This document shows positions 2,192-4,326 of a DNA stretch of 9,245 bases, piece by piece. The notes beneath the pieces were generated by a model. The model searched no databases and was not told the origin of the DNA. It saw nothing but the letters and a program-made list of their open reading frames with translations. Each line of letters opens with the position of its first letter. The stretch's first letter is position 1. Source of the stretch: a virus (Duplodnaviria; Heunggongvirae; Uroviricota; Caudoviricetes). The translations under genes and the position numbers were made by a program. The stretch lies in the IMG/VR virus record IMGVR_UViG_2675903654_000011. One strand, written 5' to 3'.

Positions 2192-3613
2192 ATGACCACT
2201 ATTACCAAAGAGCGACTGCTGACAATCAAGCAGTGGCGCGAAACATACGGACCTGGTAGCAACGTTGTACTGCCAGCAGAAGAAGCGGAAGAACTGGCAC
2301 GGATTGCACTGGCATCATTGGAAGCAGATCCAGTTAAACGAGTTAACTCAGATCAGATGCACCGAGTCTGCTTAGAAGCTAATCGCTATTTAGATAAATA
2401 TGACGCGATGGCGAAAGAGGTAAATAAGTTGCTTGGACGCATCGCCCCGCCAGCGCCAGTATTTAACGGCGAATACGGTGACGCATATCAGGGCGCTCGT
2501 GAAGACCTGTCCATCTGGAAACGGCGAGCGCTTGAAGCTGATGAGCACGTTCGGCGACTGGAGCAAATCAATGACCACATGGTGAAAGAGGCGCAGGGAG
2601 AATCACGCATGGGCGAGCCTGTAATACGTGAGCCAGCACCGGTAGTGCCTGAAGAAGCAACTCCGGAAAACGTAGAAATGCTCTCTGGCTATGTTTCAAC
2701 GTACAAATTAACCGATAGCGAGCGCGATATTGCTGCCGAAATATGGAACGCCTGCCGCGCCGCCATGCTTCAGTCAGGAAACTTTCGGGAAAACAAGAAT
2801 TCGTCAACCAATAATTTTCGGGAAATCGAGGAAACGTCAACCAACTATCCGGCAATTCCTAGTGAGGTGTTGTCCGCAATCCTGAAGGTTGCCAGGATTC
2901 GTGCCGATTTCGATGATTTTGACGGTGACAGGCGAGGTATCGGTGATTGTCTGGATGAGGCTGAGCAAGAGCTTATCGTTACCATTAACAAATATGCCAG
3001 TCAGTTGGCAGCAGAACCGATAGCGACTAATGACGTTCGAGAGCAGCAGACAGCCGTTCCGCCAGTTCCGGAAATACAGGCTGATGTCGCGCAAGCAATT
3101 GAAAATCTCAAGCAGAAGCTAGTGGAATGTAATCGCTATAACTACTGCGCAGATGCAGTTAAAGGCGTAGAGGATGCCTGCCGTGCTGTTAGCTATAGCC
3201 AAGCCGACAATCAACCAGCATCTGGCAACCAGGCTGCCGAATCCAATCGCGGTAATGAGTGGACCGGCAATCCTGATATTGATAACGCCATCATCATGCT
3301 CGACCGCATAGATACGCTGGAAAATTGCGATGATGACCGTATTGAGGCTGTTAAGGCTGTTTTGCGTAGACTGGCTGGCAACTATCCGGTAACTCCGGAT
3401 GGTTGGATAAGCTGTAGTGAGCGAATGCCGAATACCAAAACAGCCGTTCTTGTTGCCGTGGAGTTTGACAGGAAAGGTGACTGGCGAATGAAATGGGCTA
3501 CTTACATCCCGGGGCATCCTGACGCTAATGATGGGTGGATAATTCCTGGTGCGTCGTGGAAACCGTCACACTGGATGCCGCTACCAGAACCGCCGCAGGA
3601 GGTGCGCCAATGA
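2192..3613 (+). CDS. Prophage protein with C-terminal DUF551-like domain (473 aa), function unknown
   Basis: The C-terminus (DGWISCSERMPNTKTAVLVAV...WKPSHWMPLPEPPQ) matches the recalled W...VLV...HWMPLPEPP signature of DUF551 tails in lambdoid early-region proteins. The central part is acidic and low in complexity. Confidence 0.7.
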   Translation: MTTITKERLLTIKQWRETYGPGSNVVLPAEEAEELARIALASLEADPVKRVNSDQMHRVCLEANRYLDKYDAMAKEVNKLLGRIAPPAPVFNGEYGDAYQGAREDLSIWKRRALEADEHVRRLEQINDHMVKEAQGESRMGEPVIREPAPVVPEEATPENVEMLSGYVSTYKLTDSERDIAAEIWNACRAAMLQSGNFRENKNSSTNNFREIEETSTNYPAIPSEVLSAILKVARIRADFDDFDGDRRGIGDCLDEAEQELIVTINKYASQLAAEPIATNDVREQQTAVPPVPEIQADVAQAIENLKQKLVECNRYNYCADAVKGVEDACRAVSYSQADNQPASGNQAAESNRGNEWTGNPDIDNAIIMLDRIDTLENCDDDRIEAVKAVLRRLAGNYPVTPDGWISCSERMPNTKTAVLVAVEFDRKGDWRMKWATYIPGHPDANDGWIIPGASWKPSHWMPLPEPPQEVRQ

Positions 3614-3693
3614 TCTGGCCTGAAGCCTTTGCAATTACAGGCGTTGCTATAGCTATTGATTTTTTAGTATATGTTATTTGTCGGTGGGGGTAA
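3610..3693 (+). CDS. Candidate small hydrophobic peptide (27 aa: MIWPEAFAITGVAIAIDFLVYVICRWG), not in the ORF track
   Basis: ATG at 3610-3612 overlaps the upstream TGA (ATGA coupling) and follows GGAGGT (3596-3601). The product has a single predicted transmembrane helix. Confidence 0.35.
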   Translation: MIWPEAFAITGVAIAIDFLVYVICRWG

Positions 3694-3728
3694 AAACGTT
3701 CGCCGGGATTCACACCAAAGGAGGGAAT

Positions 3729-3833
3729 ATGTCGGATGATATTTCACTGGCAATGGAAGGTGCGCTGGCTGTTATTGCTGTTGTGGGCGTTTACTGCCTG
3801 GTTGTGTTTTTGATGGATCGACTAGGGAACTGA
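3729..3833 (+). CDS. Candidate small membrane peptide (34 aa: MSDDISLAMEGALAVIAVVGVYCLVVFLMDRLGN), not in the ORF track
   Basis: Strong Shine-Dalgarno AAGGAGGG (3717-3724) lies 4 nt before the ATG. An acidic N-terminus is followed by one hydrophobic helix. A 22-bp perfect palindrome lies just downstream. Confidence 0.45.
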   Translation: MSDDISLAMEGALAVIAVVGVYCLVVFLMDRLGN

Positions 3834-3841
3834 ATTCATTA

Positions 3842-3863
3842 CGATATGGGAATTCCCATATCG
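3842..3863. repeat. 22-bp perfect palindrome CGATATGGGAATTCCCATATCG
   Basis: Read directly from the sequence: the segment equals its own reverse complement. It sits between the small-peptide ORF and the hok leader. Confidence 0.9.
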
Positions 3864-4021
3864 GGTAAAAACGGTTTGCGGTAAAGCGAGAGTTAAGTAG
3901 AATTGCTGCGGGTGCTTGAGGCTATCTGCCTCGGGCATGCCACCGTAAGGCAGACAGAGAAAAGCCCCAGTTAACATTACGCGTCCGGCAAGACGCTTAA
4001 CATTAATCTGAGGCCATATCT

Positions 4022-4234
4022 ATGCTCTACACACGTAGGTTAGCCTCTTACGTGCCGAAAGGCAAGGAGAAGCAGGCTATGAAGCAGCAAAAGGCGATGT
4101 TAATCGCCCTGATCGTCATCTGTTTAACCGTCATAGTGACGGCACTGGTAACGAGGAAAGACCTCTGCGAGGTACGAATCCGAACCGGTCAGACGGAGGT
4201 CGCTGTCTTCGTAGACTACGAATCTGAGAAGTAA
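4022..4234 (+). CDS. mok: mok-like reading frame (in-frame 19-codon N-terminal extension of hok)
   Basis: ATG at 4022 follows GAGG (4011-4014) and reads in frame into hok. The 70-aa versus 51-aa pair matches the chromosomal mokC/hokC arrangement, where both share a stop codon. Confidence 0.5.
   Translation: MLYTRRLASYVPKGKEKQAMKQQKAMLIALIVICLTVIVTALVTRKDLCEVRIRTGQTEVAVFVDYESEK
4079..4234 (+). CDS. hok: Hok/Gef-family type I toxin (51 aa), closest to HokD/HokC as recalled
   Basis: The product MKQQKAMLIALIVICLTVIVTALVTRKDLCEVRIRTGQTEVAVFVDYESEK is near-identical to the recalled HokD (RelF) sequence. AAGGAG lies upstream, and a structured 3' region with a terminator follows. Confidence 0.85.
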   Translation: MKQQKAMLIALIVICLTVIVTALVTRKDLCEVRIRTGQTEVAVFVDYESEK

Positions 4235-4301
4235 GAGACCAGGCGGGGGAGTAATCTCCCGCCACCTCTGATGTGTCAGGCATCCTCAACGCACCCGCAC
4301 T

Positions 4302-4326
4302 AAACCCGCTTCGGCGGGTTTTTTGT
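4302..4326 (+). terminator. Rho-independent terminator of the hok transcript
   Basis: Stem CCCGC (4305-4309), loop TTCG, stem GCGGG (4314-4318), then a T-run (4319-4324). Confidence 0.7.

Follow-up and report, generated by a model that had tools for sequence, protein, structure and literature searches.

Two short hydrophobic open reading frames upstream of a hok locus are probable genes for predicted membrane microproteins of lambdoid prophages

Small inner-membrane proteins such as MgrB, AcrZ, MgtS, KdpF and CydX modulate larger membrane proteins. Other small membrane-acting peptides are the type I toxins, among them Hok, TisB, Ldr, Ibs, ShoB and ZorO. Two open reading frames (ORFs) that bear likeness to both groups were analyzed here in a 9,245-nucleotide (nt) stretch of DNA from a virus of the class Caudoviricetes (IMG/VR record IMGVR_UViG_2675903654_000011); this whole stretch is referred to below as "the window". 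ORF1, of 27 amino acids (aa), and ORF2, of 34 aa, lie in tandem between a gene ending in a DUF551 domain and a hok/sok locus, and they had been proposed as genes in an earlier reading of the letters of the window (hereafter, the original prediction). It is our view that both are probably real coding genes of lambdoid prophages, and that their products are single-helix inner-membrane microproteins that act via a membrane partner; most of the uncertainty in this statement falls on the mode of action.

The likeness to MgrB-type proteins consists of the size range, a predicted single hydrophobic helix, short charged tails and the lack of an enzymatic domain. The differences are that sequence similarity is lacking, that both ORFs are prophage-borne and that ORF1 is multi-copy; a modulating function is proposed for them by analogy. 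The roles offered in the original prediction (toxin, superinfection-exclusion factor or modulator of host membrane proteins) are conjectural. With Hok/Gef, TisB, Ldr, Ibs, ShoB and ZorO, the two ORFs have in common that they encode small hydrophobic peptides with a predicted single helix. Unlike Hok/Gef, they have no periplasmic Cys-containing domain, their Shine-Dalgarno sequences (SDs) are exposed, and neither an antisense RNA nor control by fold-back was detected for them. As to expression, cistrons with overlapping AUGA codons that are coupled by termination-reinitiation have been described (Huber et al. 2019, as cited within PMC11188072). ORF1 resembles these in that its AUG overlaps the UGA of the upstream gene, which also contains its SD; this likeness concerns the mechanism of expression and not the function.

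The closest described neighbors by location are small accessory genes known from the exo-xis and nin regions of lambdoid phages (orf60a, orf61, orf63, orf73, ea8.5 and ea22; PMC10834534, PMC10789677), which occupy the same neighborhood as ORF1. In many prophages, homologues of ORF1 are situated between Ea22-like/DUF551 genes and a DUF4222-xis-int series, in early, tightly packed operons. The exo-xis/nin proteins are soluble and 60–180 aa long, whereas ORF1 has 27 aa and is a predicted membrane peptide. For ORF2, the closest system is the gene itself: ECs_5710 (WP_001278450.1, XECs145), in a further prophage copy (Sp6 of E. coli O157:H7 Sakai), does not differ from it, and it likewise has a DUF551-family gene on one side and mok/hok on the other.

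Both ORFs exist at the places given in the original prediction, and the start signals claimed for them are present:

Positions 3610–3693, plus strand: ORF1, with ATG at 3610 and TAA at 3691–3693, encoding the 27-aa peptide MIWPEAFAITGVAIAIDFLVYVICRWG.
Positions 3598–3603, plus strand: SD of ORF1 (GGAGGT), within the DUF551 coding sequence, with 7 nt from the GGAGG core to the ATG.
Positions 3610–3613, plus strand: start/stop overlap ATGA, formed by the ATG of ORF1 and the TGA (3611–3613) of a 473-aa ORF at 2192–3613.
Positions 3729–3833, plus strand: ORF2, with ATG at 3729 and TGA at 3831–3833, encoding the 34-aa peptide MSDDISLAMEGALAVIAVVGVYCLVVFLMDRLGN.
Positions 3718–3725, plus strand: SD of ORF2 (AAGGAGGG), kept in all alleles of the long form of ORF2 (the two forms are described below).

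The SD of ORF2 is only 3–4 nt from its ATG, which is at the short end of the functional range and still usable. When both strands of the whole window were scanned for GGAGG followed by 4–9 nt, an ATG and an ORF of at least 20 codons, only four sites were retrieved, i.e. the starts of two long genes, ORF1 and ORF2. The mean number of such sites was 0.65 in 200 dinucleotide-preserving shuffles of the window.

Homologues were gathered by tblastn, from locus sets anchored on DUF551 and on hok, by a DNA pattern scan and by exact cluster look-ups. ORF1-like peptides were detected by tblastn in 92 of 50,697 phage records, mostly at 50–63% identity, with six higher. Loci were then taken from two sources (160 anchored on the DUF551 domain and 120 found by a DNA pattern over the first seven ORF1 codons), and all of these together contained 167 instances of ORF1, representing 68 distinct DNA alleles. 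Exactly 27 codons were found in 152 of the 167 instances (91%). The rest were mostly hydrophobic variants of 23–29 aa; two were longer, at 40 and 109 aa, through read-through or fusion. Alleles have diverged to ca. 45–60% amino-acid identity with start, SD, stop and length kept, and the consensus is M-x-W-P-(E/D)-A-F, ca. 13 hydrophobic residues, and V-Y-S-I-C-R-W-G. Of 5426 complete E. coli genomes, 1716 carried ORF1 DNA, at up to seven copies each, and it was also found in replicons of phage-plasmid size.

The packing of ORF1 is that of a gene. In every annotated record inspected, the homologue exactly fills an unannotated gap of 84 nt: the upstream coding sequence (CDS) ends 3 nt into ORF1, and the next CDS, which often encodes a DUF4222 protein and has xis and int behind it, starts 2–4 nt past the ORF1 stop. 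The original prediction noted that both ORFs were missing from the ORF track. In public records, ORF1 was annotated in no RefSeq or phage record inspected; ORF2 is annotated (WP_001278450.1 and ECs_5710). GenBank contains sporadic 27-aa entries, such as a "putative prophage protein" in E. coli 042 and a "bacteriophage protein" in O111 strains. Neither the peptide strings nor WP_001278450 was found in a text search of the literature, the supplements of "The Cryptic Bacterial Microproteome" contained no match to the peptides, and a term search of two exo-xis papers (PMC10834534, PMC10789677) returned no mention of a small membrane ORF. The ORF1 family is essentially undescribed, and it is of a known kind, i.e. 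the small membrane proteins of phages and prophages. A separate 40-aa hydrophobic ORF of conserved appearance (MSKVNVLIFSVIVGFGFSAGVHIYITWEKIINYVWSCFIK) was observed in four of the loci (L016, L018, L026 and L090), 285–407 nt downstream of the stop of the ORF1 homologue; its contexts are of the exo-xis type, and it stands behind a 77-aa gene whose start is 2 nt past that homologue.

The start signals of ORF1 are conserved along with the frame. The ATGA overlap was present in all 22 unique contexts that were found by peptide pattern. Among the 16-nt sequences preceding the start, 33 were distinct, covering at least four unrelated upstream C-termini, and nearly all of them have a GGAGG-like SD 5–7 nt before the ATG. 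Selection statistics were calculated for codons 8–27, which are outside the search pattern, using 54 distinct cores. The pooled ratio of nonsynonymous to synonymous change (pN/pS) was 0.36 in the ORF1 frame; it was 0.88 and 1.64 in the two other sense frames, which showed no signal of purifying selection. Entropies at codon positions 1, 2 and 3 were 0.42, 0.29 and 0.86, and variation is thus mostly at third positions. Not one of the 54 cores had a stop in the ORF1 frame, while 48 had one in frame +1. These statistics argue that ORF1 is a protein-coding gene under purifying selection, with frame, start, stop and length kept and with change that is mainly synonymous.

ORF2 is 100% identical to WP_001278450.1, a product of the Prokaryotic Genome Annotation Pipeline (PGAP), and to ECs_5710 of Sakai prophage Sp6. 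It was described by Hücker et al. (2017) as the novel gene XECs145 of O157:H7 Sakai, in an N-terminally extended form of 54 aa, and was predicted there to be an inner-membrane protein with one transmembrane (TM) helix (PMC5597208). Ribosome occupancy, which had been named as a check on the original prediction, is therefore already published for this ORF (PMC5597208). In lysogeny broth (LB), the reads per kilobase per million mapped reads (RPKM) were 79 in the transcriptome and 346 in the translatome, for a ribosome coverage value (RCV, as used in that study) of 4.35 and a coverage of 0.99. The respective values were 121, 150, 1.14 and 0.84 in the brain-heart infusion (BHI) control and 73.3, 1.1, 0.01 and 0.37 in BHI stress (PMC5597208).

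At a query coverage of at least 80%, ORF2 DNA was found in 674 of the 5426 E. coli genomes, and it occurs in 3–6 places per listed O157 record. The alleles of this long form are 91–100% identical and so carry little evolutionary information. Phages Tritos, HannyBb and mEp460_ev081, as well as several E. coli replicons, carry a short form of 29 aa, (M/V)LVLKCALAIAAVMAIYCLAVVLMDRLSD. It is 48–55% identical to the long form by protein alignment (41–50% by tblastn) and has its own AGGAGG, with GTG or ATG as the start codon where the long form aligns its own. In every case inspected it is directly upstream of the hok promoter, with its stop ca. 10 nt before the -35 hexamer. Among the 11 alleles of both forms, the ORF2 frame alone was open in all. 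Entropy was lowest at codon position 2 (0.23, compared to 0.60 and 0.73 at the others), as is expected of a peptide constrained to stay hydrophobic, and pN/pS was 0.48. In this small sample of only two subfamilies, ORF2 thus has the marks of a protein-coding gene under purifying selection. For both ORFs, the conservation that had been suggested as a check was borne out in related prophages, where frame and peptide are kept and change is biased toward synonymous sites. A promoter-like sequence, TTGA(A/G)T-17 nt-CATATT, was observed ca. 60 nt upstream of the short-form start in five of six loci (L167–L171 and L174); it was not evident in L168 (HannyBb), and the long-form ORF2 of the window has no equivalent upstream.

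The ORF1 consensus and both forms of ORF2 each contain an uncharged run of 19 residues (Kyte-Doolittle 2.1–3.0). ORF2 modeled alone in AlphaFold2 was a single helix over residues 3–33, with a predicted local distance difference test score (pLDDT) of 90.6. The prediction of one TM helix for each peptide accordingly holds for ORF2 and for the ORF1 consensus; for the ORF1 allele of the window it must be amended, as the run is broken by Asp17 (GAT, 3658–3660), where the consensus and the nearest sister allele have Ala (GCT). The Asp17 allele makes up 15 of the 167 instances and is also present in O157:H7 TW14359. With that exception, the peptides are predicted from their sequences to fit a single-pass inner-membrane microprotein. 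By the positive-inside rule, ORF1 would be oriented N-out/C-in, with the acidic N-terminus in the periplasm and the C-terminal Arg in the cytoplasm. Neither peptide had a meaningful match in Pfam, NCBIfam, PHROGs v4 or PADLOC. The profile matches were weak only (best E = 0.01, most of them higher), fell to different families for different alleles, and were apparently driven by hydrophobicity.

From these features, we infer the following for reinitiation, membrane insertion, topology and mode of action. ORF1 would be a 27-codon cistron of an early (nin or exo-xis) operon of the phage. Its layout is that of a termination-reinitiation coupled cistron, with the start overlapping the upstream stop and the SD inside the upstream gene; ribosomes that end the Ea22-like/DUF551 gene at the UGA would restart at the overlapping AUG, aided by the GGAGG 7 nt upstream. 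The peptide would carry the N-terminal MxWP(E/D)AF, ca. 19 hydrophobic residues and the C-terminal ICRWG, with the acidic end out and the Arg in. ORF2 would be a separate gene of 34 codons with its own strong SD, expressed from the prophage in uninduced lysogens. Both peptides are proposed to insert as single helices; each would most likely bind a host or phage membrane protein and modulate it, and would not kill the cell.

Several observations weigh against this reading. For ORF2, the profiling call was made for the extended 54-aa ORF, on a sequence that is multi-copy in O157 and with no start-site mapping; promoter prediction found no promoter for ORF2 in the window; and the charges flanking the helix predict opposite topologies for the long and short forms. 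For ORF1, no experiment found in the literature shows the peptide, which is under the size cut-off of the Sakai study (PMC5597208), and some alleles are truncated or frameshifted. The allele in the window differs from its nearest relative by three non-synonymous and two synonymous changes and, with Asp17 besides, this copy may be impaired. Lastly, the antisense frame that shares wobble positions with ORF1 has, as an echo that is to be expected, an equal pN/pS (0.366) and is mostly open. The strand of ORF1 is therefore not fixed by the selection statistics alone, and its assignment rests on the signals, the fixed length and the packing.

The surroundings of the two ORFs contain the following features:

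Positions 2192–3613, plus strand: 473-aa gene with an Ea22-like N-terminal and central part and a C-terminal DUF551 domain (PF04448, phrog_60, phrog_14306).
Positions 3688–3707, plus strand: left copy, imperfect, of a direct repeat (GGGTAAAAACGTTCGCCGGG) found by alignment with 933W-type loci; it flanks the ORF2 cassette.
Positions 3842–3863, no strand assigned: perfect palindrome of 22 nt (CGATATGGGAATTCCCATATCG), located past ORF2 and ahead of the hok promoter.
Positions 3863–3881, plus strand: right copy of the direct repeat (GGGTAAAAACGGTTTGCGG), from the same alignment; it includes the -35 hexamer of hok.
Positions 3876–3903, plus strand: putative hok promoter, TTGCGG (3876–3881), 16 nt, TAGAAT (3898–3903), deduced from the sequence and unchanged in the other loci aligned (933W and Tritos among them).
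Positions 3910–4234, plus strand: type I toxin-antitoxin locus hok/sok, made up of the 5' region of the hok mRNA, sok (opposite strand), mok (4022–4234) and hok (4079–4234).

The position of the ORFs directly upstream of hok, as originally predicted, was confirmed. The Rfam family sok/hok (RF01794) matches 3910–4084 with 112.6 bits, which would place the 5' end of the hok mRNA at ca. 3910, and the Mok/Hok ORF at 4022–4234 matches HOK_GEF (PF01848, E = 1.1e-22) and phrog_251. Given the promoter at 3876–3903, both small ORFs would be upstream of and outside the hok mRNA. Immediately after hok, sub-threshold Rfam matches were seen at 4237–4324 (rsmX, 27.3 bits; isrK, 24.1 bits; P9, 19 bits), overlapping a terminator-like hairpin at 4302–4321; this signal most likely stems from structure at the 3' end of the hok mRNA and not from a separate small RNA.

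Compared to 933W-type loci, the window has an extra cassette of ca. 175 bp (ca. 3694–3862) that contains ORF2 and that arose by insertion or was lost elsewhere by deletion. It is bounded by the imperfect direct repeats and ends in the palindrome. In the 933W-type loci, ORF1 runs directly into the hok promoter, its stop being ca. 6 nt before the -35 hexamer. The palindrome has an EcoRI site at its center, and it is kept in the long-form ORF2 loci and absent from the short-form ones. As RNA it forms a hairpin (fold of 3826–3885, -18.4 kcal/mol, z = -3.2) that has no U tract; with no terminator call either, an intrinsic terminator was rejected, and an RNA end, an insulator or a binding site are candidate roles. 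The 250 nt preceding phage hok promoters were compared over 50 distinct regions: 13 end in an ORF1 homologue, ca. seven in an ORF2 homologue and five in an unrelated 81-aa ORF with two TM segments (MQSDFLQLAIAF...), while 19 have no such ORF. The small ORFs in this position (ca. 25 of the 50 contexts, three unrelated families) all stop at the hok promoter, a pattern that might reflect nothing more than linkage, the region being mosaic, or might point to a functional connection with hok. ORF1 and ORF2 are not one unit, in that ORF1 moves with the 3' ends of early-operon genes and ORF2 with the hok promoter.

On the upstream side, DUF551 (PF04448) occupies residues 404–469 of the 473-aa protein (E = 1.3e-20), and the PHROG matches are on the N-terminal and central parts. 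Neighboring genes in related loci are labeled ead or Ea22-like by PGAP, and an Ea22 variant with a DUF551 C-terminus has been described (PMC10834534). The 473-aa ORF is intact in the window, and in a RefSeq record that is 100% identical it is split by PGAP into two pseudogene fragments and a 62-aa DUF551 CDS; this looks like an annotation artefact. The ATGA coupling of ORF1 to the DUF551 gene held as regards the overlap and not as regards its specificity. Of 133 distinct DUF551 gene ends, many of them from Firmicutes metagenome bins, 77 overlap a downstream ORF (20 codons or more) by NTGA, and the SD is often encoded there by conserved C-terminal PEPPQEV-like codons; the DUF551 C-terminus seems to double as a translation-coupling signal. 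DUF551 genes overlap many unrelated downstream genes, ORF1 being the commonest partner in E. coli lambdoid phages. Conversely, ORF1 homologues are also found behind genes without DUF551, including those of a MazZ-like pyrophosphohydrolase-domain protein, the 933W L0139 type and other hypothetical proteins. The overlap therefore speaks for coupled translation and lends no support to a functional pairing that is specific to DUF551 and ORF1. At the yfdS (DUF551) locus of K-12, the only K-12 locus looked at, the next gene is yfdT and no ORF1 homologue is present. A fusion of DUF551 and ORF1 was considered and rejected, as the 121-aa "DUF551" representative of an ORF1 cluster has no ORF1 sequence and reflects a clustering artefact. 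Inspection by eye revealed no slippery heptamer for a -1 frameshift upstream of the ATGA.

A role of one peptide or both as type I-like toxins, which would depolarize or permeabilize the inner membrane when synthesized, for instance in prophage induction, abortive infection or exclusion, is unlikely in our estimation, even as it is the alternative that survives best. A length of 27–34 aa, a single hydrophobic helix and charged ends are shared with type I toxins, both ORFs adjoin a genuine type I locus, and in half of the distinct hok-upstream contexts a small hydrophobic ORF runs up to the hok promoter and stops there. Yet translation of ORF2 is strong in lysogens that grow normally (RCV of 4.35 in LB; PMC5597208), and both SD sites are exposed and of consensus strength, whereas type I toxins typically sequester theirs. 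Weak promoter-like sites on the minus strand (3753–3726 and 3694–3666) might be taken for those of antitoxin RNAs, but no Rfam family matched 3596–3833 at E <= 1, i.e. there was no overlap with a known antitoxin RNA. The one at ORF2 falls on the start region of that ORF and has no counterpart in the short form; a conserved antisense promoter for ORF2 was not supported. Neither peptide matched HOK_GEF (PF01848) at E <= 1, and hhalign of the ORF2 family against a Hok alignment gave a probability of 0.5%, by which ORF2 was dismissed as a truncated Hok paralogue. ORF1, for its part, is an ordinary operon cistron that occurs in up to seven copies per genome.

A second alternative, which we consider doubtful and somewhat less probable than a toxin, is that the act of translation matters and not the peptide: ORF1 would be a relay cistron that passes ribosomes from the gene before it to the gene behind it, and ORF1 and ORF2 would retain ribosomes on read-through transcripts as far as the hok promoter and thereby insulate or tune hok/sok. 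Points in its favor are the ATGA upstream of ORF1 and the gap of 2–4 nt downstream of it in exo-xis contexts, the generic NTGA coupling at DUF551 gene ends, and the closeness of the stops of ORF1 (ca. 6 nt) and short-form ORF2 (ca. 10 nt) to the -35 hexamer of hok. A relay needs no particular sequence, however, yet the end motifs, the hydrophobicity and the 27-codon length of ORF1 are kept while third positions vary. The conservation of codon position 2 in ORF2 is likewise typical of a constrained hydrophobic peptide, and 19 of the 50 hok contexts manage with no upstream ORF.

It is very improbable that the ORFs are non-functional and that their conservation stems from recent descent of a mobile segment, from a DNA or RNA element, or from a minus-strand gene (the 62-aa ORF at 3525–3713): the near-identity of the long-form ORF2 alleles, the open antisense echo of ORF1 in most alleles and the minus-strand genes called here by some annotators would favor it, but ORF1 keeps its start, SD, stop and length at ca. 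45–60% amino-acid identity, the two forms of ORF2 have independent start signals in the same place at 48–55% identity, and ORF2 carries ribosome footprints (PMC5597208). The 62-aa antisense ORF was itself ruled out as a gene, since the open antisense frame varies from 22 to 192 codons over 94 contexts with no fixed ends, and all neighboring genes are on the plus strand.

A further suggestion is that the ORF1 and ORF2 families are functionally tied to the adjacent hok, by modulating the insertion or toxicity of Hok or by setting hok/sok expression from read-through. It is prompted by the stops that fall ca. 6–10 nt before the -35 hexamer and by the hydrophobic ORFs in ca. 25 of 50 contexts, and we give it only a slight chance of being correct. 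If true, a type I toxin system would here have a partner at the level of protein.

No concept is changed by the reading that we prefer, in which ORF1 and ORF2 are probable genes for membrane microproteins, as small membrane proteins of phages are a known class. Its practical value is that of two defined and easily testable candidates and of a correction to annotation. ORF1 is a case of a 27-codon gene that is absent from standard annotation and whose DNA is nonetheless present in about one-third of complete E. coli genomes and in Shiga toxin (Stx) phages, including 933W. Genes of the exo-xis and nin regions have been reported to affect the lysis-lysogeny decision and the induction of Stx prophages; as an overlooked, predicted membrane peptide of the same neighborhood, the ORF1 product is a candidate for exo-xis/nin phenotypes that are as yet unexplained. 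ORF2 is translated in uninduced lysogens of enterohemorrhagic E. coli and, consequently, may affect the physiology of the host.

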